Below are positions 2,218 to 49,635 of a stretch of 50,126 nucleotides of DNA, in pieces. The DNA is from Escherichia phage AugustePiccard. The DNA is taken from the sequence record MZ501051; one strand, given 5' to 3'. The position numbers and the translations under genes were made by a program. Position 1 is the stretch's first letter, and the number at the start of each line of letters is the position of its first letter. The notes below the pieces were generated by a model. The model was given only the letters and a program-made list of their open reading frames with translations, was not told where the DNA came from and did no database searches.

Positions 2218-2239
2218 AATCAAAACAAGAGTGGGTGTT

Positions 2240-2716
2240 ATGAATTGGGCTGAATTTTTTAGATACGAAGATGGAAATCTGGTAAGGGTTACCACAACCT
2301 CAAGTAGAGCTATTGAGGGCATGGTTGCTGGAAGCTTGTCTGGCAATGGCTATCTGCACATAAGAATAGGCGACAGGCGTGTAAAAAACCATCTCATAAT
2401 TTGGGAGATGCACAATGGAAGGATACCAGAAGGGATGGAGATAGATCATATCAATCACATAAAGACAGATAACAGGATCGAGAATTTAAGGCTCGTAAGT
2501 CACAAACAGAACCTATCAAACGCATCTCTTAGGTCAGACTCGTCAACTGGTGCGAGTGGCGTTAGTTGGAACAGAAACAGGCAGAAGTGGCACGCTTATA
2601 TAAAGTCTAACTACAAGAGGATGCACATAGGATTTTTTGATTCCTTTGATGATGCCGTAGCAGCAAGAAAGAAAAAGGAGATTGAATTGGGATTTCATGA
2701 GAATCACGGAAAATAG
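2240..2716 (+). CDS. HNH homing endonuclease with AP2-like DNA-binding domain (copy 1)
   Basis: Motif IDHINHIKTDNRIENLR plus SGVSW..W.AYI; starts MNW like copies 2 and 3 (track ORF begins at GTG 2231). Confidence 0.8.
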   Translation: MNWAEFFRYEDGNLVRVTTTSSRAIEGMVAGSLSGNGYLHIRIGDRRVKNHLIIWEMHNGRIPEGMEIDHINHIKTDNRIENLRLVSHKQNLSNASLRSDSSTGASGVSWNRNRQKWHAYIKSNYKRMHIGFFDSFDDAVAARKKKEIELGFHENHGK

Positions 2717-5625: not shown

Positions 5626-6132
5626 ATGGCAATTCGTTCCGTAGCACTGGCTGGTATGGTTTCTGATACCTCTCTGTACAACATCGACGGCGCTTGTGTA
5701 GTTGGTGGCATTGCTGCAATTCCAGTTGGCACTGCAGTTCGCGTAACAACAGCTCAGCCTATTGATGGGCACAAGGTTGTAGTTAACACTGGCATCTCAG
5801 CAGATGAAACACCGTATGGTGTTGTAATTCGCTCCCATTATGAAACTCCTGATGGAACCGCTAAGGCACAGGAAGCAGTTAACGTAATGACTCATGGCCG
5901 AGTGTGGATGCGCGCAGCGAGCAACGTAACCGCTGAGTCTGTAAAGGTTGGTGCGGCTGTTAGTATTAGCGCATCTGGTCTCGTTGATACTGGCGGCGTT
6001 GGCAAGCCTAACTGGACTTACGCAGGTGGTTTTATTTCTAATGCCGTAACCAACCCTCAAGCCAATGACTTCGATCAGCAGGATACTAGCGTTGATGGCG
6101 CCCTGGTTGAAGTGCAGATTCGTCAGGCATAA
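5626..6132 (+). CDS. head-associated protein (possible decoration protein)
   Basis: 168 aa, Gly/Val/Thr-rich, strong RBS AAGGAG; sits between scaffold and capsid genes. Function by position only. Confidence 0.35.
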   Translation: MAIRSVALAGMVSDTSLYNIDGACVVGGIAAIPVGTAVRVTTAQPIDGHKVVVNTGISADETPYGVVIRSHYETPDGTAKAQEAVNVMTHGRVWMRAASNVTAESVKVGAAVSISASGLVDTGGVGKPNWTYAGGFISNAVTNPQANDFDQQDTSVDGALVEVQIRQA

Positions 6133-6165: not shown

Positions 6166-6190
6166 AAGCCTCCTTCGGGAGGTTTTTTTA
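6166..6190 (+). terminator. rho-independent terminator
   Basis: CCTCC-TTCG-GGAGG plus T7. Confidence 0.75.
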
Positions 6191-6243: not shown

Positions 6244-7533
6244 ATGAACTTTTTAGATTTAGTCAGAAAGCAATACGATAGCGGAAAGGTTAGTCTTTCA
6301 GGAGTAAAGGTTAGCACTGACTTCACAACCACTTCATTAATTCAAGCAGCAACGACAATAGCTAACCCAGTCACTCACACCCGCAAGGATGAAACTAAAT
6401 TTAAGTTTACCACTTACGGGCTGGCTGATGTTTCCGGCGGCTCCTATACTGGGCAGTCGCCAAATGGCGTGCAAATGAAAATTGAGTTCATGACTGACGC
6501 GCTTGTCTTTGAGTTCAAGACTATCGGCTCTATCGGTACGTACTCTGTATTTGTTGATGGAGAGCTAACCAATATTGATGCAATCTCAACTCCTAACGGT
6601 CAAGCCGTTACTTACGTAAGAACCGAAGCCTCAGATGGCGTAATTAAGAGAATGAGACACGTCGAGATTTATGGGGTGAACACTTCATTCGGCGGGTTGT
6701 TTACCGACGCTGCGGATACGGTAACCAGCGAAATCACCATCGATCCAAAACCTTTTATCTACCAGATGGGTGACAGTTACACGTACGGCACTGGCGCAGG
6801 CTACGTAACTCAGGCATACGGCTCATCCCCAGCGATTAACGATTTCTACGTGTTCAGAAATGCGCTAGGCATGGACGGCATCGCGGAAGGTATCGGTGGT
6901 AGCGGATGGAACAGCACGGGCGGGCAAGTTCCGGCCTCAAGGTTGCAAAACAGACTGCTTAAGATGAATCGCAAGCCAGATGTTGTTAGTTTCGCTCTCG
7001 CATACAATGACGCTGCGGCTATTAACACTGGAACTAACGCAAGCAAACTAGTTACCTCGATGGGTGACGCGCTAAAGGTTGTCCGAGATGCAATGCCTGG
7101 CGTTCCTGTTATTCATGTTAGCTGTGCCACGCCAAAAGGAATCACCACGCAAATTCAGAGAGTCATAGACCTTACTCATGATTTTTGCGCAAGAAATGAC
7201 ATTCCCGTGATTGGGATTAGTAACTACGTGACTGCGGCGAACAGCATTTCATACACTGGAACGGATAACGTCCACCCAAACCCTCTGGGGCACGAATTCC
7301 GCGGTTTAGCTATGGCAAGGGAGTCATTAATGGCGGCGCTGGAAGGTCGTAGCCTGGTGCCAGAAATCAAACCCAGCGGTTTCACTGTAACTTACATTGA
7401 GCGACTCCGCTTCGCGGTTGATGTTAAGCGTGAGGTTGTTCAAGCTAAAACCGCAGATGAGGCATACTGGATGGTTAAATCTCGGGAGTACAGCAATCCA
7501 GACTTGAGAATCGAAATCATTTCTGTAGCATAA
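6244..7533 (+). CDS. SGNH/GDSL-family hydrolase (esterase) domain protein
   Basis: GDS block [11 protein letters not shown] and catalytic DxxH block [12 protein letters not shown] in the C-terminal half; flanked by terminators inside the head module. Confidence 0.6.
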
Positions 7534-7537
7534 CAAC

Positions 7538-7562
7538 AAGCCTCCTTCGGGAGGTTTTTTAT
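7538..7562 (+). terminator. rho-independent terminator
   Basis: CCTCC-TTCG-GGAGG plus T7; near-identical to the terminator at 6166. Confidence 0.75.
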
Positions 7563-7615
7563 TAACCTTAACTCTGTTAGACTTATTAGGTCTATTAACC
7601 AATCAGGAGATTAAG

Positions 7616-9049
7616 ATGGCTAGCGAATTAAGAGCAGTAACCGCTGGGACTGCCCACGCCCTAAAGCAAAAAATCATGGAATACATTGCTGATGGTTGGC
7701 AGCCTTATGGAAGAATCCTTAACGCTGGAGCGACTAGCGTTGGTATCATCATGGCGAAAGGTACTACAGCAAGCATTAATGATGTTGATGTTATTACCGC
7801 AGATTCAAGGGCTTCTTTAGTTTCTAAGATTAACTCATCCATCGAAAATGGGTTTGAGATGTTCGGAGAGCAGGAAGTGAACGCAAGTAGATTTATCGCC
7901 TTCATGACTAAGGGTTCTCAAGGTTCATCTGGTGGCGGTGGAGAACCTGGACCAATTGGGCCTAAGGGTGAGAAGGGTGACAAGGGCGACAAGGGAGATG
8001 TTGGTGAGCGCGGACCCGCTGGCCTAGCTGGTGCGGCTGGCGCTACTGGTCCATCTGGCCCTCAAGGTTTAACTGGCCCCGCCGGCGCTAAAGGTGATAC
8101 TGGTGAGCAGGGACCAATGGGTCCAACTGGCGCTACTGGACCTAAAGGTGATACTGGCGAAACTGGTCCCGCCGGACCGCAGGGCCCAAGAGGATTGCAA
8201 GGTGAGCAGGGGGTTCCGGGCGAGGTTGGTCCTGCTGGATTGACATTCCAGGGCGCATGGGATTCTGCTGCGACATATGTGAAGGATGACACTGTAGTTT
8301 ATGATGGGTCTACTTGGTTTGCTCCAGATGCTGTAGCTGCTGGATTAGTCCCTGGAGTTGCTACTGAGTGGATTCTTTTAGCTGCGCAAGGCGCAAGGGG
8401 CGAGGATGGTCCGCAGGGTCCGGTTGGCCCTCAGGGTTTACAGGGTGCCACTGGCCCAGCGGGTCCTACTGGTGCTACTGGTGCTACAGGCCCGCAAGGC
8501 CCTAGAGGTATACAAGGTCAAACTGGCCCGGCAGGCCCAGCAGGTCCTCAGGGTGAGGCTGGTCCTCAGGGTATTCAGGGTCCGCAGGGTGTCGCTGGGC
8601 CTCAGGGATTAACTGGTCCTCAGGGTCCAAAAGGTGATAAAGGCGATGCTCCTTACACATTATTTAACTCGCAGAACGTTACATCAACATACATTGAAAT
8701 CCCTATTCCGCAAGTAACCAACACTGTACTTAGGGTTAGGCTTTCAGGTGCCAACTTTGAATATAGCGTTTTAAGCAAAGGCGGCGCCAATAGATATGTT
8801 GACTTTTACACATTCATCCCGTCATTAACTAGCTCAACGGGTAACATCTATACCGGAGGAACTACCTTGACACCAACTGGTAGCCTCTTTTTGGGTAACT
8901 CCCCCGTGGCTCTTGGATTGAGGGAGTTGACAATAACACTCAAGGAATGGGGCGACAGAACGCTAACTACAATAAAGGCGATACATCACGGCAGATCAGG
9001 TGACACAACAAGACCTTTGCAGATAACTATGTTTAGTAATAAGTATTAA
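7616..9049 (+). CDS. collagen-like (Gly-X-Y repeat) structural protein
   Basis: Two long Gly-X-Y tracts ([23 protein letters not shown]... and [20 protein letters not shown]...) between globular N- and C-terminal domains. Confidence 0.75.
7933..8643 (+). repeat. Gly-X-Y coding repeats (GGN-NNN-NNN periodicity)
   Basis: Repetitive GGT/GGC-CCN triplets inside the collagen-like gene. Confidence 0.7.
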
Positions 9050-9129
9050 CAAAAAGCCCACCATTGCGTGGGCTAAAAACTCGTGTATAATGAACCCGTA
9101 GACACCTAACTGAAAAGGAACAATAAAGA

Positions 9130-10074
9130 ATGGCCATTAAATTTGATGCAGAACAAGCTAAAATCACCGCTCACCTTGAGCAAATGGGCGTAGAAAAGGC
9201 CGATGCCGCTGGTATCTGGACTGTTAAGCAGCTGACCGCTACTCTGAATCGCGCTTACGAAAAAGAATATGCAGACAACTCTGTTGTTAACATCTTCCCT
9301 GTAACCAATGAAATCCCTGGTCATGCGAAGTATTTCGAATATCCAGAGTTTGATGGTGTTGGCATTGCTCAGATTATCGCTGATTACTCTGACGACCTTC
9401 CGTTGGTTGACGCCTTCATGACTGAGAAGCAAGGTAAAGTGTTCCGTTTCGGTAACGCATTCCTAATTTCTACTGATGAAATCAAAGCAGGCGCCGCAAC
9501 TGGTCAGTCACTGTCAACTCGCAAACAAGCACTGGCATTCGAAGCGCACGACAATCTGCTTGATAAACTGGTTTGGTCTGGCTCCGCTCCGCATGGTATC
9601 GTAAGCGTATTCGACCAGCCGAACATCAACAACGTTGTCGCAACTCCAGACTGGAGTGAGCCGCTGAACGCAATTAATGACGTCACCGCGATGATTGATG
9701 CAGTTGAGACTTCAACTCAGGGTTTCCATCACGTGACTGATATTCTGCTTCCGGCATCTGCTCGCCGAGTAATGCAGCAACTGGTTCCGAATACTACCCT
9801 GAGTTACGGTGAACTGTTCACTCGTAACAACCCGGGTCTGACTATTCGCTTTATGCAGTTCCTGGACAACTACGATGGCGCAGGTGGCAAGGCTGCTCTG
9901 GCGTTTGAGAAGAATCCATTGAATATGTCTATCGAGATTCCGGAAGCTACTAACGTTCTTCCGGCTCAACCTAGAGATCTGCATTTCCGCTACCCTGTAA
10001 CATCAAAAGCGACAGGTTTGATTGTTTATCGTCCTCTGACGATGGCTGTAATCAAAGGCATTACCTTCGCTTAA
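9130..10074 (+). CDS. major capsid protein (putative)
   Basis: 314 aa with strong RBS, followed by a strong terminator; position in head module. No motif confirmation. Confidence 0.55.
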   Translation: MAIKFDAEQAKITAHLEQMGVEKADAAGIWTVKQLTATLNRAYEKEYADNSVVNIFPVTNEIPGHAKYFEYPEFDGVGIAQIIADYSDDLPLVDAFMTEKQGKVFRFGNAFLISTDEIKAGAATGQSLSTRKQALAFEAHDNLLDKLVWSGSAPHGIVSVFDQPNINNVVATPDWSEPLNAINDVTAMIDAVETSTQGFHHVTDILLPASARRVMQQLVPNTTLSYGELFTRNNPGLTIRFMQFLDNYDGAGGKAALAFEKNPLNMSIEIPEATNVLPAQPRDLHFRYPVTSKATGLIVYRPLTMAVIKGITFA

Positions 10075-19646: not shown

Positions 19647-22600
19647 ATGGCACAAATGATCAAAACAAACATGAGGCTTTGTGATATGGCTGAAGAGATT
19701 AAGATTTATGGTGCCAAGGGTGGTAGCCAGAAGCAGCATCAACCAGTAGAGCAGGAAGATAACCTGATTTCGTTAAACAAGGTTAAGGTTCTTTTGGCGG
19801 TTGCTGACGGAGAGGTGGATCCAAACTTCTCAATGAAGGATTTATACCTTGCTGACGTTCCAGTACAAAATCAGAATGGCACCTACAACTATGAAGGAGT
19901 TCGAGCTGAGTTCCGCTCTGGTACGCAGTATCAGGATTACATCGCTGGGCTTGACGGTGCTAACTCAGAGATTCAGGCTTCACGTGAAATCACGAACGAC
20001 ACCCCGTACATTATTGCGGTTAACAATACTCAGCTATCAGCAATTAGAGTTAAGCTATTTTGGCCTCGGCTGGTTAAGCAAGAAAGCAACGGAGACCTGA
20101 ACGGAACTACTTGCGAGTACGCAATTGACCTTTCTGTTAATGGTGGCGCTTATCAGGAATACACTCGCGGAGTTGCAAACGGGAAGACAACTACGGGTTA
20201 CGACCGCAGTATTCGTGTAAACCTTCCAGCTGAATTTGATAGCGCACTGGTTCGAATTCGCAAGATTACAGCAGATTCAACAAGTAGCACGCTGGTTAAT
20301 GGAATGCAGATTACAACCTATCAGGAAGTAATTGACGCTAAATTCCGCTACCCGCTTACTGCTCTGGTTTATGTTGAGTTCGGATCTGACCTGTTCCCTA
20401 ACGGCATCCCGACAATCTCTATAAAGAAGCGCTGGAAGTTGATTCAAGTCCCGACAAACTACGACCCGGAGACCAGGACTTACAGCGGCACATGGAATGG
20501 CCTGTTCAAAATGGCGTGGTCAAACAACCCGGCCTGGGTTCTCTATGACTTAGTGACAAATCGCCGCTACGGCCTTGACCAGCGAGAGTTGGGTGTAGAG
20601 ATTGATAAGTGGGGGCTATATGAAGCTGCGCAATTCTGTGACCAGATGGTGCCGGATGGTAAGGGTGGTATGGAGCCGCGCTACCTGTGCGATATGGTTG
20701 TGCAGAATAAAGTTGAGGCCTACACGCTAATTCGTGACATCTGCTCAATCTTCCGTGGACTGACTTTCTATGATGGCGAAAAGATTGGTATCGTGGTTGA
20801 TAAGCCTCGAAATACATCTTACATCTTCACGAATGATAACGTTGTAAACGGATTATTCAGCCGAACTTTTGCCAGTGATAAGAGCCTTTACACTACGGCA
20901 AACGTTCAGTTCGATGATGTGGAAAACAACTATCAGCAAGATGTAGAGCCGGTATTCGAGTTGGAGGCTACTCGCAGATTTGGATTCAATCCAGTCGACC
21001 TTACGGCAATCGGATGTACGCGAAGAAGTGAAGCAAACAGGCGCGGCAGATGGCTCCTGAAAACCAACCTGAGAAGCGAAACTATCAGCTTCACTACCGG
21101 GTTGGAAGGCATGATTCCGATGATTGGCGAGGTGATTGCGGTTAATGATGCCGCATGGTCTAGCAACTATCAGCTGAACCTTTCCGGTCGTATTGAGTCA
21201 GTTCAGGGATTGCAGGTTTTTACACCGTTCAAAGTTGACGCTGCGCCGGGCGACAGAATTCTTCTAAACAAGCCTGACGGAAGCCCAGAGGCAAGAACTA
21301 TTGCCAGCGTTTCGGAAGATGGTAGAACAATCAACCTTAACACTGCTTTCAGCTTTGTGGCTCAACCTGATACTGTTTTTGCAATTGATAAGGACAATCT
21401 AGCGCTTCAGCAATATGTTGTGACAGGGATTCAAAAAGCAGACTCTGACGGTTCGGATTCTTTCCAGTATACGATTACCGCAGTAGAGTATGACCCGAAC
21501 AAGTACGACGAGATTGACTACGGCGTTAACATTGCTGACCGTCCAACTTCAATTGTTGAACCTGACAGATTGTCGCCGCCTGAGAATTTAACAGTATCAA
21601 GCTACAGCAAGATTGTTCAGGGCTTATCAGTTGAGACGATGGTTATCGGATGGGATAAGGCGCCATACGCTAAAACTTACAACGTTCAATGGAGGAAAGA
21701 AAATGGCAACTGGATTAACGTACCCAGAACAGCAAGCACAGAGGTTGATATCGAGGGTATTTACGCAGGAATCTACGACGTTAGGATTCGCAGCGTATCA
21801 GATACTGAAAACGTGTCCGCCTGGTCTGGCATTGTAACCAAAAGCCTCACCGGAAAGATTGGTAAGCCACCAAAGCTGCAGGTTATAACGGCGAGTGATG
21901 ATGAGGTTTTCGGAATTCGAGTTAAATGGGGGTTTGCTGACGGATCTGGTGATACTGCTTACACTGAGCTTCAGCAAGTGGCTGATAATGGTGATGGTAC
22001 ATACAACCCAGACAGTGCTAGCCTGTTAACTTTGGTCCCATATCCTCAGTATGAATACTGGCACACGCCGATTCAACCCGGCAATGTTATATGGTATCGC
22101 GCAAGGATTATAGATAGGATTGGTAATACATCTGATTGGACGGACTTCGTCAGAGGGATGAGTACTGATGACGCTCAGAAGATCGCTGAATATATCAAGG
22201 TTGATATCGAGCAGTCTGAAGGATTTAAATACCTACAGCAGAATGCAATTGATAAAAACCAAGACATTCAGAATCAAGCTGAGGCAATAATCGAGAACGC
22301 ACTAGCAAATGACTCAGATGTAAGGCGCCAGTCTGTTAAGAATGGGAAATTTACAGCTTCAATAACCGAAAGTCTTCAGTTGATTGCTGACGAGCAGCAA
22401 GCCAGGGTAACTCAGATATCTCAGCTTGAGGCGGATTTTGACGGAAGGGTTAATTCTTTAAACACTGAACTAAGAGAGGTAATAACAACTGGTGATAGCG
22501 CTCTATCAAGATCAATTGATGATTTAAGGGTTGAGATTGACGAGAACATATCATCACAAATAACAAACATAAACACGGCTTTAGTAACAGAAGCAGAAGC

Positions 22601-23156
22601 AAGAGCCACGGCTGACACAGCTTTGTCTGCAAGGCTTGGTCAGAACGAGGCGGCACTAAACCAGAAGCTGGATGCTTTCTCTAATGCCACATCAACTGGC
22701 GTACAGTACGGAATTAGTCTTGGCCTGAAATACAACGGGCAGACTTATTCATCCGGTATGAGCATGGAGCTCGTTGGCACTGGTGGCAATGTTCGCAGTC
22801 AATTCATTTTTGACGCAAACAGATTCGCAATCAGTAACGGAATTGGTTCTGGTTCCGGTCAGTGGCAACTCCCCTTTGTTGTTGAGAATGGAAACGTAAT
22901 CATCCAAAGCGCAGTAATCGGTGATGGATCAATCAGTAACGCGAAGATTGGTAACTTCATTCAGTCCAATAACTACGTGGCAGGAAGCAGAGGTTGGAGG
23001 ATTGATAAGAGTGGTAATGCTGAGATCCGAGGAAAACTTTACGCCAACAGTGGTGAGTTCGCTTTTAACGGAACAAACAATACGGTACAGATTAACGGGA
23101 ACGGAATTACGGTAAACTTACCTGGAGGTGGTAGGGTTGTTGTAGGCACGTTTTAA
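19647..23156 (+). CDS. tail tip / host specificity protein (lambda gpJ-like central fibre)
   Basis: 1169 aa; block NPAWVLYDLVTNRRYGL is characteristic of the gpJ family; true start may be ATG 19686. Confidence 0.75.
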   Translation: MAQMIKTNMRLCDMAEEIKIYGAKGGSQKQHQPVEQEDNLISLNKVKVLLAVADGEVDPNFSMKDLYLADVPVQNQNGTYNYEGVRAEFRSGTQYQDYIAGLDGANSEIQASREITNDTPYIIAVNNTQLSAIRVKLFWPRLVKQESNGDLNGTTCEYAIDLSVNGGAYQEYTRGVANGKTTTGYDRSIRVNLPAEFDSALVRIRKITADSTSSTLVNGMQITTYQEVIDAKFRYPLTALVYVEFGSDLFPNGIPTISIKKRWKLIQVPTNYDPETRTYSGTWNGLFKMAWSNNPAWVLYDLVTNRRYGLDQRELGVEIDKWGLYEAAQFCDQMVPDGKGGMEPRYLCDMVVQNKVEAYTLIRDICSIFRGLTFYDGEKIGIVVDKPRNTSYIFTNDNVVNGLFSRTFASDKSLYTTANVQFDDVENNYQQDVEPVFELEATRRFGFNPVDLTAIGCTRRSEANRRGRWLLKTNLRSETISFTTGLEGMIPMIGEVIAVNDAAWSSNYQLNLSGRIESVQGLQVFTPFKVDAAPGDRILLNKPDGSPEARTIASVSEDGRTINLNTAFSFVAQPDTVFAIDKDNLALQQYVVTGIQKADSDGSDSFQYTITAVEYDPNKYDEIDYGVNIADRPTSIVEPDRLSPPENLTVSSYSKIVQGLSVETMVIGWDKAPYAKTYNVQWRKENGNWINVPRTASTEVDIEGIYAGIYDVRIRSVSDTENVSAWSGIVTKSLTGKIGKPPKLQVITASDDEVFGIRVKWGFADGSGDTAYTELQQVADNGDGTYNPDSASLLTLVPYPQYEYWHTPIQPGNVIWYRARIIDRIGNTSDWTDFVRGMSTDDAQKIAEYIKVDIEQSEGFKYLQQNAIDKNQDIQNQAEAIIENALANDSDVRRQSVKNGKFTASITESLQLIADEQQARVTQISQLEADFDGRVNSLNTELREVITTGDSALSRSIDDLRVEIDENISSQITNINTALVTEAEARATADTALSARLGQNEAALNQKLDAFSNATSTGVQYGISLGLKYNGQTYSSGMSMELVGTGGNVRSQFIFDANRFAISNGIGSGSGQWQLPFVVENGNVIIQSAVIGDGSISNAKIGNFIQSNNYVAGSRGWRIDKSGNAEIRGKLYANSGEFAFNGTNNTVQINGNGITVNLPGGGRVVVGTF

Positions 23157-23158
23157 AA

Positions 23159-23186
23159 CAAAAGCCCCGAAAGGGGCTTTATCTTT
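23159..23186. terminator. bidirectional terminator between convergent genes
   Basis: AGCCCC-GAAA-GGGGCT flanked by A-run and T-rich tract. Confidence 0.6.
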
Positions 23187-24120
23187 AATACATATCAGGA
23201 AGGTAAGGAAGAGGAATGCCAAGTGTAACGTCTGGCCTATTTCCAATTTCATATCTAACTATCCTTGTGCCCGTGCCGCTCCTTACATTACCACCAGACA
23301 TTACCACACCTTTGTTTCTTAGCTCCTTGTATGCAGGTATTGCTCTTGTGTTAAACCCACACCTAAGTATTGGAAAGTATGAGTTTCCTATACTCTGGTT
23401 TGAGCTCGTCAAGGTCCTGAACCCAGAAACAACAAGAGGCCTTGTTAATGTTGAAAAAGTACACTGATTGTTAGAGTTGAATATGTTTATGCCAGGCCCT
23501 GGGGTTGGAGCAACCTGCTGAAATATTATTAGATCAAGAGTTACGCTACCAGGGGTATCTCCAGTATCTTCTGTATTTATATTCGTGCAATATAGAGTTC
23601 TGTCACCATCAAACTCAACTGAGACACCTGAGTTATTCCACTTCCCAAAAGGTATTCCAGCTATTGGCATTGTATAGCTGTTTGTGAATGATACGGTTGC
23701 TGAAAATTTGCAAGTAAGAAGCCTATCCCTTGTTGTTATAGAGGCGAAATCAGTACTATCAGCAACGTATATACCTTGCCCAGTTGACGCTCTCAATACT
23801 TCCACTACAGTTCCAGAGAACTGCGTAATACGGTCATTATAAGCATTCTCCCCACCAATAGTTATCGTCCCCTGAGTATTGGTTGCTGAAAATCCATTTA
23901 TATAATAAATCTCAACCCCCCTATCAAGTTCAAAGCTATAGGCACCATTTCTTGGTAGTAAGAATTTTGATGAGCCATCGCTACCAGTTATTGGGAATGT
24001 CTTTGTAAATCCTCCGCTAGAAACGTTGAAGTTACCAGCAAAAGACAACCCCCTCATCCCTGAGGTTATCATCATTGGGTTTCTACCATCATTCAGATCT
24101 ATATATATACCTTGGGCCAT
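23185..24120 (-). CDS. hypothetical protein (possible receptor-binding or tail-associated)
   Basis: About 311 aa, convergent with J; start ATG 24120 overlaps the upstream lipoprotein stop (TAATG); Gly/Ser/Thr/Asn-rich. Confidence 0.35.
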   Translation of the reverse strand: MAQGIYIDLNDGRNPMMITSGMRGLSFAGNFNVSSGGFTKTFPITGSDGSSKFLLPRNGAYSFELDRGVEIYYINGFSATNTQGTITIGGENAYNDRITQFSGTVVEVLRASTGQGIYVADSTDFASITTRDRLLTCKFSATVSFTNSYTMPIAGIPFGKWNNSGVSVEFDGDRTLYCTNINTEDTGDTPGSVTLDLIIFQQVAPTPGPGINIFNSNNQCTFSTLTRPLVVSGFRTLTSSNQSIGNSYFPILRCGFNTRAIPAYKELRNKGVVMSGGNVRSGTGTRIVRYEIGNRPDVTLGIPLPYLPDMY

Positions 24121-24350
24121 TAATTCCACTCCTTAGAGCCATGATCACGAACAGATCCGCTAGAGCCTTTAATTCCATCGTAACGAACATCAACCTCGCC
24201 AGCCGGAACAACTACACCACCCTTCCATTTAGCTACGCATACGCCGTTAGCTTGAGTTGCACACCAACCATCCGGGCGAGGACCCGATGAACAACCTACT
24301 GTCATGATTACTACTGCGGCGATGATTGCTGATTTGATTAAGTTAGTCAT
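24120..24350 (-). CDS. small lipoprotein (Cor/Llp-like superinfection-exclusion candidate)
   Basis: 76 aa; signal peptide ending in lipobox-like ..MTVGC; own box promoter; coupled to the downstream gene. Confidence 0.5.
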
Positions 24351-24390
24351 TTTGTATTCCTTAGTAAGTTCGTTTCGTTTCGATGGAGTA

Positions 24391-24436
24391 ATAGTATCGC
24401 ATCCTTGCGATCAGTGTTTAGCAATTCGTGCTATTC
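24391..24436 (-). promoter_or_regulatory. box promoter for the Cor-like lipoprotein
   Basis: Minus strand: GAATAGCACGAATTGCTAAA, 22 nt, TACTAT, CCATCGAAACGAAACG; the box encodes the methyltransferase C-terminus N-S-T-N-C-stop. Confidence 0.6.
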
Positions 24437-25107
24437 GCCAAGAATACAGCTCTTGCAAATCCACGAGGTGTAAGGCTGCGAATTACCTTTGTCTTCTTGC
24501 TCTTGCCGCCAAGTTTCTTGTATTGGTCAGAGAAACCACCATCAACCTCCACAGGAATCGCCTCAGGCCATCTAAACCCATTACCAGACCAAATACATGT
24601 CTTTTTAGGGTATGCATCTCTTGGCTTTATTAGGTCTCTAAAAAACGGGTGTAAATCATCTTCCGGCAAATATCCACCGTACTCATATGGATGGAAAGTG
24701 TTATCAGGTTTTCGCCAAAGTGATGAAAGTACGCTGATTGGGTTTTCAATCATGTATGGCACCTCGTACTTTTCAGCCAGGTTGAAAGCAAACTTGCAAG
24801 TCTCTGCCGCCTCAATTTGAAAATTAGGATTGGCAAGACGCTTACGCTCGAAGTGTCTTGAGCCGCTCACCGCTAAATCCGTACAAGGCGGGAATGCTAA
24901 AATGAAATCAGGCTTCACATCGAAATCGAAGTCAGCATCTATCCAGGTGTTAACGTAGGTAATATTCTCATGCTCAACTTTTGCGTTTAAGTCACCGTAG
25001 CTCCCGTGGTCTGACTCATCAAAGTTGAAGCAGTAGCAAGTGTGACCAGCTTCAGCCCAATCTTTTACCGCCAGACCAGAACCATCAAATAAAGACCAGA
25101 TAACCAT
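24418..25107 (-). CDS. compact DNA (cytosine-5)-methyltransferase-like protein
   Basis: Motif I LFDGSG, motif IV FPPCT (Pro-Cys), motif VI ENP, C-terminal R.LTPRGFARA; only 229 aa, so no room for a typical target-recognition domain. Confidence 0.55.
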   Translation of the reverse strand: MVIWSLFDGSGLAVKDWAEAGHTCYCFNFDESDHGSYGDLNAKVEHENITYVNTWIDADFDFDVKPDFILAFPPCTDLAVSGSRHFERKRLANPNFQIEAAETCKFAFNLAEKYEVPYMIENPISVLSSLWRKPDNTFHPYEYGGYLPEDDLHPFFRDLIKPRDAYPKKTCIWSGNGFRWPEAIPVEVDGGFSDQYKKLGGKSKKTKVIRSLTPRGFARAVFLANSTNC

Positions 25108-25136
25108 ATTAAAACCCCTCTCGTTAAAGTGCGGCG

Positions 25137-25181
25137 ATTATACCGCGCAAAATTTATTGTTCTTTGGCAATTCGTGCCATA
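25137..25181 (-). promoter_or_regulatory. box promoter for the methyltransferase-like gene
   Basis: Minus strand: GGCACGAATTGCCAAAG, 22 nt, TATAAT, leader AACGAGAGGGG. Confidence 0.55.
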
Positions 25182-29404: not shown

Positions 29405-31924
29405 TTACCCAGTTGCTCCAGTAACTATATTTTTCCATCCAGTCCCTGTCGCAAAAGCAATTAATCCAGTACCCGTACCAAACGATGCATTATTGTTAGT
29501 GCATGATTGATTTCCGGTGCGCTGGAGATTTGCAGCATCTACAGTTAAACCAAATCCATAGGCACGATAGTTGAAGCCACTTTTTGCATTTGATGGGATG
29601 AGCGAGTTACCATAGTTTATTGCACCGTAGATATCAACAATCCCTGCTGCGGTCGTTTCAATTGGATTTCCCGAAGTGGAAATAAGCGTTACGTTACTTG
29701 CCGTTACCATTCCTCCAGAATAAAACAGGGCAAGTTTTCCACTGTTCGCACCTGTAACATTACTCAGTATCACTCTTGGTGATGAGGCGTCTGCATTGGC
29801 AGCGAATTGCCTGAACAGATGGCCGTTAGAATAAACCATATCAGAAATGTTTATATTTTTTAACGTTCCTCCACGAATTTGGCAGAGTGTTGCCTCTGTT
29901 TTATGATCTACCGACCCTTTTATAGTTACGTTGTCAACAACACCTCTCGTAACCAGGCACAATGAACTGTACTGGTCACCACTTAACAAAGTATTTTTTG
30001 ACTTGATATTAACGTTAAGGATTCTTGACTTATCATTTCCAGATCCTTCACCACATGCGAATCCAAACTTAGAATTTCTTGGCGCATCCATGTCTAAGTT
30101 ATAGACTGTGACACCAACAGACCCCCTAACGTCAACAACAGGAGTTGATATATTAGTTAAGTTAGTGGATACGCCTTCCACTACCACTTGATCAGCAAAC
30201 ACCTCGCCCAGGCCACGGTCGTAAATTTCACACAGTGCATGGCCCGCTCCAGGAATAGCGGATATATCATCAAATATTGCATATTTAACCGTTGTTTTTG
30301 TTAGGTTATGATCAGCCCAAATTCTTACCGGAGCATGTTGGCAGGTGCCATGTATTCCCCGTACAGATACATGCTTAAACTCAACACCATCGTTACCTGC
30401 AAGCTTTACAGCACACAGAGTTGTGTCATTAAATAACCCTTCAACATCGATAAATGTGAAATTTCCTCGAGTCCCTAAGTCATATGATGCGTAATCTCCA
30501 CCGGTCATTGCGAATAAGTCGTCTCCGGTATGACCACGTAGATTCCTTACATACGCATGGTAGATGGGTGGTTGCAAGTGAAGACCATCAGAGTGATTGT
30601 CAAACTCAAGACCCTGAGCATCAAGGTAATCAATATTCGCTACAAGATAGGCATACTTGAACGCCCCACCAACTTTAAGTCCACCACCAAGTTTTAGCCT
30701 TTTAACACCAGCTATACAGATGGCATGGGTATTAAGCCCTCCTGGAGCAGTACCGGATTTGTTATAATTTATAATTCCACCACCACGAATTCCAAGATAA
30801 TCAGATTTTTTAGTCAGGTCCGAAGGGTTTGATATGGTATCAAACCAATACTCACTAATAAATAAAGGCATGTTTGTGCCTTCTACGTTTCTAATCTCTG
30901 TTCCTGCGTGAATCAATACATCCATATTGTTTTTTAGCAGTAAAGAACCATTTACCAACACAACTCCTTTGCAGTCAAAAACAAATTGAGAAATGAAAGA
31001 TTGTCCTCCTAGCGACGAAAATACCGAGTTAATCCTTGCAGTATTCTCTTCTGCCGTAGAAGATGGGGATACACCATAATCAGACATAAAATAAGTTTGC
31101 CCAACGCGCACATCCAAAGGCATAGGAACCCCAGGGCCATTTGGATTTGTGTATGTGACTAGTGACGAACCAGATCCAGAAGCTAAGTTAGCTCTTAATG
31201 ATGTATCACTAGCTCTAACCCATGCACCAGGACCAATACCACCAGATGATTCAGGAGTTGATCCAGCTGGAACAACCTTAGGTAACGTTCCTGACCAAAG
31301 GAACTGTACGGCATAACCATCAATGAATTGAATTATCACTTGGTTTTTTGACTGAAGAGTTACTCCATCATCAAAGTTACCAACCAGGGCTCCGGATACT
31401 GATTCAGCGGCACTCTGAGCGACGATTGCAGAATTGCTTGCAGATGACGCGGAACTAGAAGCTGAATCCTTGTCTGCTGATACCTGAGATGCATCAGATG
31501 ATACCTGAGAAGCAATAGTAACAATTTCTCCAAACTGTGTGTTAACTTGGTTTACATCAGTTGAGAATTTATCATGATCAAAATCCTTGAAAACATCAAC
31601 CGCCTCTGCAATCGCAGTTTCACGCGACTGATAGTGACGAAGTGTTTCCGCAACATCTTGAGCTAAACCCTGAACGGTAATTCCATCATGCGCAAGGATT
31701 GCGTAACCAGTACCAGCAGGAACGGTTTCAGAATTAGGGTTGTAAACATTAATCTGCGTATCGCTGATAATTTCTGAGATGGTGTAAATTTTTACTGGTT
31801 CAGTTTTGAAAACAATGGTAGCACCTACGCGAATCAGTGTAAGCGGTGCTTTCCATGTAGTTCCCACGCCGGTCACCTCGCCATTTGCGGATAACGACGC
31901 CGTTCCTAAGTCATAAATTGCCAT
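29405..31924 (-). CDS. tail fibre / tailspike-like protein
   Basis: About 840 aa; Ser-rich linker (SSDASQVSADKDSASSSASSASNS) and long Gly/Asn/Thr-rich body; start taken as MAIYDLGT (ATG 31924). Confidence 0.45.
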   Translation of the reverse strand: MAIYDLGTASLSANGEVTGVGTTWKAPLTLIRVGATIVFKTEPVKIYTISEIISDTQINVYNPNSETVPAGTGYAILAHDGITVQGLAQDVAETLRHYQSRETAIAEAVDVFKDFDHDKFSTDVNQVNTQFGEIVTIASQVSSDASQVSADKDSASSSASSASNSAIVAQSAAESVSGALVGNFDDGVTLQSKNQVIIQFIDGYAVQFLWSGTLPKVVPAGSTPESSGGIGPGAWVRASDTSLRANLASGSGSSLVTYTNPNGPGVPMPLDVRVGQTYFMSDYGVSPSSTAEENTARINSVFSSLGGQSFISQFVFDCKGVVLVNGSLLLKNNMDVLIHAGTEIRNVEGTNMPLFISEYWFDTISNPSDLTKKSDYLGIRGGGIINYNKSGTAPGGLNTHAICIAGVKRLKLGGGLKVGGAFKYAYLVANIDYLDAQGLEFDNHSDGLHLQPPIYHAYVRNLRGHTGDDLFAMTGGDYASYDLGTRGNFTFIDVEGLFNDTTLCAVKLAGNDGVEFKHVSVRGIHGTCQHAPVRIWADHNLTKTTVKYAIFDDISAIPGAGHALCEIYDRGLGEVFADQVVVEGVSTNLTNISTPVVDVRGSVGVTVYNLDMDAPRNSKFGFACGEGSGNDKSRILNVNIKSKNTLLSGDQYSSLCLVTRGVVDNVTIKGSVDHKTEATLCQIRGGTLKNINISDMVYSNGHLFRQFAANADASSPRVILSNVTGANSGKLALFYSGGMVTASNVTLISTSGNPIETTAAGIVDIYGAINYGNSLIPSNAKSGFNYRAYGFGLTVDAANLQRTGNQSCTNNNASFGTGTGLIAFATGTGWKNIVTGATG

Positions 31925-31947
31925 AATTTCAACTCCTATTTTTATTG

Positions 31948-31965
31948 ATAGCACGAATTGCTAAA
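31948..31965. promoter_or_regulatory. palindromic box copy upstream of the tail fibre gene (orientation ambiguous)
   Basis: ATAGCACGAATTGCTAAA only about 25 nt from ATG 31924, with no correctly spaced -10 on the gene side. Confidence 0.35.
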
Positions 31966-31988: not shown

Positions 31989-32012
31989 ATAAAAAAACCT
32001 CCCGAAGGAGGT
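31989..32012 (-). terminator. rho-independent terminator (minus strand)
   Basis: CCTCC-TTCG-GGAGG followed by T7 on the minus strand. Confidence 0.7.
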
Positions 32013-32935
32013 TAGTTTAGTAGTTCGCTTGCCTTATAGATTCTCTTTCTTATTCCTGACTTGAAAAAATTATCATCATTTGGCATTACCACATCAATAT
32101 TGCGATCGTCAGCAACGGCGAGTAAATCAAGATCGTGGCGAGTACAAGCGATGCGTAACTTGTATTTTCTAAGCGCGTAAGCAACCATTTCCATGTTGTA
32201 GATGGAGTAGCAAACAAGCACGCAGCGGTTGCCAGTAGCAATGTGAACACGATAGCCGTCAATGAGATTATCGACCAGATAAGCGTAATCATCATCCTTA
32301 AAGGAACCAATAACAGAAACAGATTGGCGAGTATAATCTTTTGCAGCATAACTAACACCTCCATATTCATTGATAAACATTACATTACACATTTCTTCTG
32401 ATATGCCGTCACTATAAGCCATAAAGCACGGCACTGCGTGTATTAGTTCGCCTGATTTTGTTCTGCCAACATCAAAGCCAAACTCGCTATAGATTCCCTC
32501 GTATGTACTGAGCGGAGTTGATTCTACTCTTTCAGTCCTTTCCATTATCTCTAAGCATCTTTCGTGGTCAATCTGAGCGCCCATTTTGTAGATCTGGGTT
32601 CTTGATGCTTGCTTGTTTGCTTTAACTATAACCTCAATTGGTGTTAAGTTCAGCCAGTCACCAAGCAAATTTACTGAATCGGCGAAGGACGATCCAGTGC
32701 ACTTCATGACCCATCCTATACCGGAGTCACTCCCGCATTTCGAACAAACTGCCGCGCCATTTCCTTTTTCACTGCCTATTTCGTCGGTAAATCTGAATCT
32801 GTCAGTGCCAAAGCAGTATGGGCATGGTCCGTGCTTCTTACTTAGGTGTCTATCATTCCAACCAAGTTCCTTTGCATAAAATGATTTCCACAATCCGGCC
32901 ATCTTAGGTATAACTTCATTCTTATCGTAATTCAT
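32012..32935 (-). CDS. DNA primase (zinc-ribbon type, putative)
   Basis: N-terminal zinc-ribbon HGPCPYCFGTDRFRF...CSKCG; position beside helicase and HNH. Confidence 0.5.
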   Translation of the reverse strand: MNYDKNEVIPKMAGLWKSFYAKELGWNDRHLSKKHGPCPYCFGTDRFRFTDEIGSEKGNGAAVCSKCGSDSGIGWVMKCTGSSFADSVNLLGDWLNLTPIEVIVKANKQASRTQIYKMGAQIDHERCLEIMERTERVESTPLSTYEGIYSEFGFDVGRTKSGELIHAVPCFMAYSDGISEEMCNVMFINEYGGVSYAAKDYTRQSVSVIGSFKDDDYAYLVDNLIDGYRVHIATGNRCVLVCYSIYNMEMVAYALRKYKLRIACTRHDLDLLAVADDRNIDVVMPNDDNFFKSGIRKRIYKASELLN

Positions 32936-49557: not shown

Positions 49558-49635
49558 GCTCTGCTAGCTCAATTGGACAGCAGCAACGACCTTCTAAGTC
49601 GTAGGTTACTGGTTCGAATCCAGTGCGGAGCGCCA
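49558..49635 (+). tRNA. tRNA-Arg (anticodon TCT)
   Basis: Cloverleaf: acceptor GCTCTGC/GCGGAGC, anticodon stem ACGAC/GTCGT, loop CTTCTAA, T-arm ACTGG-TTCGAAT-CCAGT, encoded CCA; D-arm slightly irregular. Confidence 0.75.

Follow-up and report, generated by a model that had tools for sequence, protein, structure and literature searches.

Introduction

Cryo-electron microscopy (cryo-EM) and proteomics in a 2026 preprint (bioRxiv 10.64898/2026.04.10.717836) showed that gp84, the NanS-p esterase of phage phi24B, attaches through DUF1737 to hexons of the major capsid protein (MCP), in whose central pore it sits as a hexamer. In Karamvirus proteins, the fusion of a Hoc anchor with a GDSL domain was stated by Fokine et al. 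2023 (PMC10385173), and no enzyme was among the decoration proteins listed in a 2020 review. Here, a free-standing SGNH/GDSL esterase gene (6244-7533, plus strand) is analysed in Escherichia phage AugustePiccard (MZ501051; the whole stretch of 50,126 nucleotides (nt), hereafter the window), where it lies in the head module between a capsid cement gene and the MCP gene. The 429-amino-acid (aa) product is proposed to be a virion-borne, probably capsid-borne polysaccharide O-acetylesterase that is encoded by an exchangeable cassette and docked via a lineage-specific C-terminal module, a proposal to which we give an even chance of being correct.

Sequence comparison places the window phage among the T1-like siphoviruses (Drexlerviridae, Braunvirinae, Rtp-like). 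The nearest sequenced relatives are RobRod40, JeanPiccard (BASEL Bas02), the BEK phages, and Rtp, with RobRod40 sharing 87.9% identity with the window across 76% of the first 25 kb. The genes of the head module are arranged in the order of terminase, HNH endonuclease, small virion protein, portal, protease, cement, the optional SGNH and collagen-like genes, and MCP.

Catalytic apparatus of the SGNH protein

The SGNH gene starts with ATG and is preceded by an AAGGA ribosome-binding site 9 nt upstream. An earlier note on this DNA, made from the letters alone, had described the product as a 429-aa SGNH/GDSL protein with a GDS block and a DxxH motif, and the open reading frame (ORF), the Pfam matches, and the invariant catalytic residues all agree with that description. 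The two motifs are GDSYTYG at aa 176-182 (nt 6769-6789) and DNVHPNP at aa 341-347 (nt 7264-7284). Pfam Lipase_GDSL_2 (PF13472) matched aa 175-351 with an E value of 4.2e-13 and 50.6 bits (cutoff 32.9) and Lipase_GDSL matched with 1.8e-08, both within aa 173-352. A total of 54 homologues were found, and conservation was scored on an alignment of 52 sequences, in which G176, D177, S178, N255, D256, D341, and H344 are invariant and the block II glycines G216, G218, and G221 are at least 90% conserved. The protein thus carries the hallmarks of the SGNH superfamily, namely the block I GDS serine, the block II glycine, the block III asparagine, the block V DxxH, the profile match, and the alpha/beta/alpha fold, and the invariance of the catalytic blocks in 52 homologues indicates that the full catalytic apparatus is under selection. 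Moreover, the proportion of nonsynonymous differences (pN, 0.14-0.18) was far below that of synonymous differences (pS, 0.74-0.82) against the homologues P0004, P0005, and P0006, indicating purifying selection and hence a genuine, functional coding sequence.

No signal peptide was found in the SGNH protein, which shares 96% identity with metagenomic proteins; among sequenced phages, its closest counterpart is 59% identical. The GC content of the cassette (0.477) is the same as that of the adjoining head genes, giving no compositional sign of recent foreign origin. The orthologue gp46 of phage IME542 (L003 6232-7275) is listed in RefSeq as a coding sequence of 347 aa, and tblastn aligned aa 1-426 of the window protein to 23889-25160 of that record; its start codon is probably mis-called, or a frameshift is present.

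Predicted fold and enzyme class

The AlphaFold2 (AF2) model of the SGNH protein, with a predicted local distance difference test (pLDDT) of 93.7 and a predicted template-modelling score (pTM) of 0.89, comprises a short N-terminal helix, a beta-sandwich at aa 27-165, the SGNH domain at aa 170-367, and a small beta-beta-alpha-beta module at aa 378-428. Structure prediction of the N-terminal half, a check named in the earlier note, yielded a CE2-like jelly-roll beta-sandwich at aa 27-168 (6322-6747, plus strand; AF2 strands at aa 27-155), which Foldseek likewise supports as a CE2-type accessory or substrate-binding domain. The SGNH catalytic domain follows at aa 169-367 (6748-7344, plus strand), supported by the Pfam match and the invariant residues, with Ser178 at nt 6775-6777 and Asp341/His344 at nt 7264-7275.

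The best Foldseek matches in the PDB cover the jelly-roll and SGNH domains together, with E values of 1e-15 to 1e-11. The top match is the acyltransferase SsfX3 (3skv), and the others include the CE2 acetyl esterases 2wab, 2wao, 4xvh, and 2waa (CtCE2, CjCE2, and fungal CE2) and the acetyl-xylan esterase Est2A (3u37); the alignments to 2wab, 2wao, 4xvh, 3u37, and 2waa extend over 353-408 columns and span both domains. Sequence identity in the structural alignments to these matches is 12-16%, and phmmer against the PDB retrieved no CE2 chain, only a CE-unrelated acetyl esterase with an E value of 0.03. The SGNH protein is therefore not assigned to CE2 despite its CE2-like build, and from the modelled structure we infer that it works like a CE2-type polysaccharide O-acetylesterase.

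Weaker Foldseek matches were obtained to the peptidoglycan O-acetylesterases Ape1 (4k3u and 8gld, E values of 3e-09 to 1e-07), and homologues lie next to lysis genes in two temperate phages. Both observations would fit a cell-envelope or lysis accessory that acts on O-acetylated peptidoglycan in an Ape-like manner, or on lipids, and so aids lysis or entry. Such a role is highly improbable, considering that CE2 and acetyl-xylan esterases match far better with both domains aligned and that the window gene is located in the head block instead of the lysis block. In addition, O-acetylation of peptidoglycan is not known in E. coli.

A variable accessory slot between the cement and MCP genes

The cement and MCP genes enclose an accessory slot of variable content. 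Its left border is the capsid cement protein gene (5626-6132, plus strand; PF22758 Phage_cement, 6.7e-23), the product of which is homologous to Rtp rtp26, described as similar to abundant T1 capsid proteins. Its right border is the MCP gene (9130-10074, plus strand; PF09950, 4.7e-36; phrog_264). In the window, the slot contains the SGNH gene followed by a collagen-like protein gene (7616-9049, plus strand; Collagen PF01391, 2.1e-29; DUF1737, 5.1e-08), and with PF22758 upstream and PF01391 downstream, the position between a capsid-associated and a collagen-like gene given in the earlier note is correct.

Relatives fill the same slot differently. RobRod40 has an MCP 97% identical and a collagen-like protein 95-100% identical to those of the window, and an unrelated 181-aa gene takes the place of the SGNH gene. 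The SGNH gene stands alone in the slot in IME542 and one metagenomic phage; it is accompanied by a fibre gene in Opt-79, Sf12, Sd1, and several metagenomic phages, some of which also have a 174-187 aa gene. In Rtp and JeanPiccard, the MCP gene directly follows the cement gene and the slot is empty. Judged from these sequences, the SGNH gene is an optional cassette, apparently exchanged horizontally among Drexlerviridae lineages. The 174-187 aa occupants (RobRod40 L001 5535-6080, L009 9386-9919, L012 1131-1694, and Sf12 gp59 at L015 6388-6912) matched nothing in Pfam or PHROG and showed no resemblance to the SGNH protein.

The cassette is bracketed by two copies of a terminator hairpin on the plus strand, as the earlier note had reported. 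The first copy, AAGCCTCCTTCGGGAGG followed by T7, lies at 6166-6190 and forms a recurrent cassette junction, and the second, the same AAGCCTCCTTCGGGAGG followed by T6, lies at 7538-7560 just 3' of the SGNH gene. Three copies of the 14-nt terminator core CCTCCTTCGGGAGG are present in the window, where 0.14 would be expected, and a count of three was not attained in any of 100 shuffles. The core is present at the slot junctions of nearly all related loci, each cassette closing with its own copy. The third exact copy (31998-32011) is located between a minus-strand gene (32012-32935) and the lateral tail-fibre gene (29405-31954, minus strand, separate from the head module), so the same hairpin flanks another exchangeable module. 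The hairpin may be a recombination hotspot or a module boundary.

Comparison of the junctions showed that an extended -10-like element, TGTATAAT (9084-9091, plus strand), is conserved ahead of the capsid gene, whether the slot is empty or occupied. At the empty site, a single terminator stands immediately 5' of this element and the MCP ribosome-binding site. In Rtp (L017 3462-3574) and JeanPiccard (L018 2487-2601), the terminator of the empty slot is followed by ACACCATTGCGTGGGCT, which keeps only the right half of the hairpin AGCCCACCATTGCGTGGGCT; the complete AGCCCACCATTGCGTGGGCT follows the collagen gene in the window (9050-9129) and in RobRod40. From the sequences, it looks as if the cassettes of Rtp and JeanPiccard were deleted between two terminators and were not absent from the outset.

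Morons are autonomous accessory transcription units in phage late operons, a concept due to Hendrix. The earlier note had offered a moron as one of two explanations, and much of that description fits: the SGNH gene is inserted between conserved genes, absent from the close relatives RobRod40, Rtp, and JeanPiccard, swapped between lineages, and equipped with its own terminator. As for a promoter of its own, a consensus scan found no sigma-70-like site upstream of the gene and no convincing dedicated promoter emerged. A TATAAT follows terminator 1 in the window and is not kept in relatives, in which only a short CTGTTA-containing motif after the terminator is retained.

An autonomous, terminator-bounded cassette absent from close relatives would also suit a soluble enzyme that is no part of the virion. 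Such an enzyme would remain cytoplasmic until freed at lysis, deacetylate polysaccharide on debris or neighbouring cells, and act in a receptor-modifying or receptor-destroying role, leading to less unproductive adsorption or altered susceptibility. What else the slot encodes speaks against this explanation.

Head fibres encoded in the slot

The collagen-like protein has two N-terminal DUF1737 repeats (33.1 bits, cutoff 24) and, by analogy with phi24B gp84 and Rogue1 Gp21, is probably a head fibre anchored in the capsid hexons. Its other parts are long Gly-X-Y tracts, a segment with weak likeness to CBM5/12, and a C-terminus rich in beta structure. Rogue1 gene 21 is located in the same cement-to-MCP slot, and its product shares the DUF1737-type N-terminus of the window collagen-like protein. 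Rogue1 Gp21 was identified by mass spectrometry (MS) as one of the three prominent bands of purified virions, together with the MCP and the major tail protein (PMC3496638). Two slot genes of metagenomic Drexlerviridae (L013 6308-7090 and L011 11477-11974) combine a DUF1737-like N-terminus with a C-terminus matching the phi29 head-fibre family PF11133, one of them also with collagen repeats, an arrangement that points to mix-and-match head fibres. Slot occupants with DUF1737 and PF11133, together with Rogue1 Gp21 on virions, indicate that the slot encodes head-surface appendages. Since the SGNH gene sits where relatives keep head-fibre genes, the enzyme is probably carried on the virus particle, and the fact that the other occupants are head-surface fibres counts against a soluble enzyme.

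Relatives of the collagen-like protein in 30 phage records are annotated as 'tail fiber protein', 'DNA polymerase (I)', or 'hypothetical'. The labels 'tail fiber protein' and 'DNA polymerase I' on slot fibre genes are wrong, in what looks like a systematic misannotation.

Anchors in homologous proteins

Homologues of the CC31/PG7 type (Karamvirus, T4-like) share 35% identity with the window protein over its aa 27-354. In CC31p007, aa 9-75 match the capsid-binding domain of T4 Hoc (aa 294-361) with an E value of 1.7e-11. Among the homologues, the Hoc-like domain is found only in P0026, P0034, P0036, P0038, and P0039, and other members have tail-fibre-type N-termini (PF08400 in P0029 and tail-fibre PHROGs in P0041). 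All non-Drexlerviridae homologues have an N-terminal extension of 32-272 aa and end 5-8 residues past the SGNH domain, except P0025, which also has a 172-aa C-terminal extension. The Drexlerviridae SGNH proteins have a 26-aa N-terminus before the jelly-roll and a C-terminal module of 63-72 aa. Homologues from several phage lineages thus bear virion anchors, which counts against a soluble enzyme.

A Gly-rich domain of approximately 90 aa (SGGTGY...GD...GG; phrog_32129) is situated between the variable N-terminal anchor and the jelly-roll in all non-Drexlerviridae homologues (P0033 aa ~45-135, P0047 aa 1-92, and CC31p007, L004 4434-5969, aa ~105-195) and is not found in the Drexlerviridae proteins. 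It may be a spacer or a binding domain.

The PHROG family phrog_9703, 'head decoration', matches the window protein with an E value of 4.8e-111 over profile positions 167-496 of 502, corresponding to the esterase part. The name of the family stems from the Hoc-like domain of the CC31-type members, according to the note in the CC31 record, and this Hoc-type capsid-binding domain is not in the window protein. The 'head decoration' label on the window protein is thus transferred from a domain that it does not contain.

Docking of the esterase on the tail, for instance on the lateral tail fibre or the tail tip, would have the C-terminal module act at a different site and the enzyme work in the manner of deacetylating tail fibres or tailspikes known from other phages, despite a gene in the head block. 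SGNH esterases are commonly tail-fibre components (PMC9569702), and the PhiPsa374 protein gp053 is a virion SGNH protein annotated as tail fibre. The tail-fibre-type N-termini of some family members and the terminator hairpin beside the lateral tail-fibre gene (31998-32011) point in the same direction. Nevertheless, a tail location is improbable: the gene shares the cement-to-MCP interval with DUF1737 head-fibre genes, the best-anchored homologues have a capsid-binding domain, and no similarity to tail-fibre anchors was detected in the window SGNH protein. PhiPsa374 gp053 was also considered as a family member and is not detectably in the family of the window protein.

The C-terminal module as a proposed virion adaptor

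The reading of a capsid-borne enzyme draws in part on the C-terminal beta-beta-alpha-beta module of approximately 55 aa (aa 378-429; 7375-7530, plus strand), which AF2 modelled with a pLDDT of 90-97 and which is proposed to be the virion adaptor. P0015 and P0017 have modules 91-96% identical to it and cores 40-48% identical to that of the window protein. The reverse pattern was observed in P0004, P0005, and P0006, with cores 72-80% identical and C-termini 28-45% identical. Compared with P0015 and P0017, the synonymous divergence (dS) of the module is 0.39-0.50 and its nonsynonymous divergence (dN) 0.02-0.04; in the core, dS has reached or nearly reached saturation. The resulting dN/dS of about 0.05-0.08 indicates strong purifying selection on the module.

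A sliding-window profile delimited a recombination block at 7345-7610 (plus strand) with 88-97% nt identity to two phages whose core is 40-48% identical at the aa level. The block holds the linker, the C-terminal module, the terminator, and the leader of the collagen gene, and its edges are sharp, falling in the interdomain linker on one side and at the start codon of the next gene on the other. The C-terminal module recombines independently of the enzyme core. A conserved adaptor combined with an exchangeable payload is the pattern seen in the attachment domains of tailspikes, and a strongly constrained module that shuffles independently is more typically an adaptor than a subdomain of an enzyme, a further point against a soluble enzyme.

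Several candidate relationships of the module were rejected. hhalign against the DUF1737 repeats of the slot fibres gave 1% probability, and a DUF1737 kinship was rejected at the sequence level. BLASTP against the 181-aa protein of RobRod40 and the collagen-like neighbour found nothing that would be an anchor common to the SGNH protein and other slot occupants. Three long repetitive proteins that appeared to carry the module as a portable domain turned out to be spurious summed matches.

A number of observations weigh against attachment through this module. It has no match in Pfam at E values up to 10, its fold is generic, and a profile search of 1.84 billion representative proteins retrieved it only from Drexlerviridae SGNH proteins. 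The identity of the module showed no co-variation with that of the cement protein, MCP, portal, or terminase; IME542, for example, has an MCP 95% identical to that of the window and a C-terminus 46% identical. In rank order, module identity loosely follows the N-terminus of the fibre gene downstream, a relation that physical linkage could explain. AF2 sets the module confidently against the enzyme (pTM 0.89), so it could be an integral enzyme subdomain instead of a tether. In the protein as a whole, no recognised capsid-binding domain was detected, and DUF1737 is present in the adjoining collagen-like protein and not in the SGNH protein itself. Literature searches returned no proteomic or structural data on the window protein or any Drexlerviridae orthologue, and the SGNH protein is not mentioned in the papers on T1-like AHP24 and Rogue1 or in two Karamvirus papers. 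The paper reporting 31 RisingSun proteins from crude-lysate MS does not mention the homologue gp136 by name in its main text, which is a weak negative. Finally, homologues in lambda-like and P2-like temperate elements adjoin lysis cassettes.

Many of the same facts favour a soluble enzyme, namely the absence of a known anchor domain and of a signal peptide, the confidently packed three-domain model, the homologues beside lysis genes in lambda-like and P2-like elements, and the module without co-variation with capsid proteins. The C-terminal module would then be a substrate-binding or oligomerisation subdomain. Set against the anchored homologues, the head-fibre slot, and the constrained shuffling of the module, a soluble enzyme is rather unlikely, yet it is taken seriously here.

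The other explanation in the earlier note, a virion-displayed glycan-modifying enzyme, is favoured by the CE2-like fold, the Hoc fusions, the head-fibre slot, and the shuffling of the C-terminus, and it falls short in that the protein contains no recognised capsid-binding domain. Its two alternatives are each partly right and not mutually exclusive.

Proposed role of the SGNH protein

These observations suggest a model in which the esterase gene of this Rtp-like phage is an optional cassette, passed on by horizontal exchange, in its head-decoration slot. The enzyme would be a carbohydrate O-acetylesterase with a CE2-like jelly-roll and an SGNH domain, a predicted Ser178-Asp341-His344 triad, and a Gly/Asn255 oxyanion hole. 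The C-terminal module, swapped independently of the core, would most likely dock the enzyme on the virion, probably on the capsid surface. On the particle, the enzyme would remove O-acetyl groups from surface or environmental polysaccharide, with O-antigen, capsule, colanic acid, enterobacterial common antigen, and mucin glycans as candidate substrates, and deacetylation may help the phage penetrate, or come off, the glycan layer. Virion attachment, the attachment site, and the substrate are what we infer from the gene context, the homologues, and the fold; the analysis itself establishes the ORF, the invariant catalytic motifs, the fold, the layout of the cassette with its presence or absence in relatives, the shuffling of domains, and the capsid or tail anchors of homologues.

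A further proposal, made tentatively and with more doubt than confidence, is that the C-terminal module represents a previously unrecognised adaptor for docking on the capsid or a head fibre, that the SGNH protein would then be the first enzyme-bearing decoration protein described on a T1-like (Drexlerviridae) siphovirus, and that the slot would serve as a natural plug-and-play locus for capsid display, with terminator-bounded cassettes for esterases, DUF1737 collagen fibres, and phi29-like head fibres swapped to retune the interaction of the particle with glycans.

If the enzyme is on the capsid, T1-like phages would be a further group, beside T4-like and Stx phages, whose head surface actively processes glycans and is more than a passive container. 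This would bear on host range, mucus and biofilm penetration, and adsorption to debris in very common coliphages of therapy collections. Cargo display on T1-like capsids could likewise build on the slot and the small C-terminal adaptor as a natural scaffold. For genome annotation, slot genes widely mislabelled 'tail fiber' or 'DNA polymerase I' are affected.

Other features of the window

An HNH homing-endonuclease gene (HNH_3 plus an AP2-like domain; 2231-2716, plus strand) is located between the large terminase gene and the genes of the small virion protein and portal, and the position of HNH genes in related phages varies within the structural module. Outside the head module, the J-like tail tip gene (19647-23156) is directly followed on the opposite strand by a gene for a 314-aa membrane protein (23185-24129, minus strand; phrog_1265, category 'moron/host takeover'), which may have a superinfection-exclusion function. 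One tRNA-Arg (anticodon TCT) lies at 49558-49635 (plus strand); relatives have tRNA-Arg(CCT), with or without tRNA-Trp, close to the small terminase gene. No repeat is common to both ends of the window, which is approximately 3 kb longer than related genomes.

Comparison with known systems

The CE2 enzymes (CtCE2, CjCE2, and Est2A) and SsfX3 have the same order of an N-terminal jelly-roll followed by an SGNH domain, with TM scores of 0.5-0.68 on the target. By contrast, the window protein keeps the full Asp-His pair of DxxH, has an additional C-terminal module, and occurs in a phage context. Among deacetylating tail fibres or tailspikes with an SGNH domain, G7C gp63.1 is an example. Tail fibres of this sort are fusions encoded in tail modules, whereas the window protein is free-standing, encoded in the head block, and without a tail-fibre domain. 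Proteins of this class, for which Pectobacterium phage Possum (PMC9569702) is another example, are virion-borne SGNH esterases that modify host surface polysaccharide.

SPP1 gp12 and Rogue1 Gp21 are collagen-like, encoded just 5' of the MCP gene, and present on virions. Their likeness concerns the neighbour at 7616-9049 and does not bear on the SGNH protein itself. With morons, the cassette shares its layout, one gene that ends in a terminator of its own and is placed between two structural genes that are conserved; it differs in that the other cargo of the slot in the window phage consists of structural head fibres. Moreover, the window phage is virulent and T1-like, so that a role in lysogenic conversion is ruled out, unlike in morons.

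The phi24B protein gp84/NanS-p (DUF1737 plus a SASA esterase plus a lectin domain) is likewise a carbohydrate O-acetylesterase, shown there by cryo-EM and proteomics to be a capsid decoration. Its esterase is of the SASA/NanS type, in contrast to the CE2-like SGNH enzyme of the window, and the anchor is fused to the enzyme in phi24B only, a T=9 podovirus and temperate Stx phage. The Karamvirus Hoc-anchor plus GDSL proteins (CC31p007 and the 511-aa protein of PG7) have a homologous jelly-roll plus SGNH core, belong to the same phrog_9703, and represent phage-encoded accessory esterases predicted on the capsid (PMC10385173). They carry the N-terminal Hoc domain and the Gly-rich domain and end right after SGNH, whereas the window protein has neither and features a unique C-terminal module; their genes are among the early genes, and the window gene is in the head block.

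Considering the demonstrated capsid-displayed esterase gp84 and the predicted ones of PG7 and CC31, the window protein belongs to a known kind, and the novelty implied by the earlier note was overstated. The family is already catalogued as 'head decoration' by PHROGs (phrog_9703) and RefSeq. Two features have no earlier description, namely the C-terminal module specific to Drexlerviridae and the head-decoration slot with its modular build and terminator-bounded cassettes.

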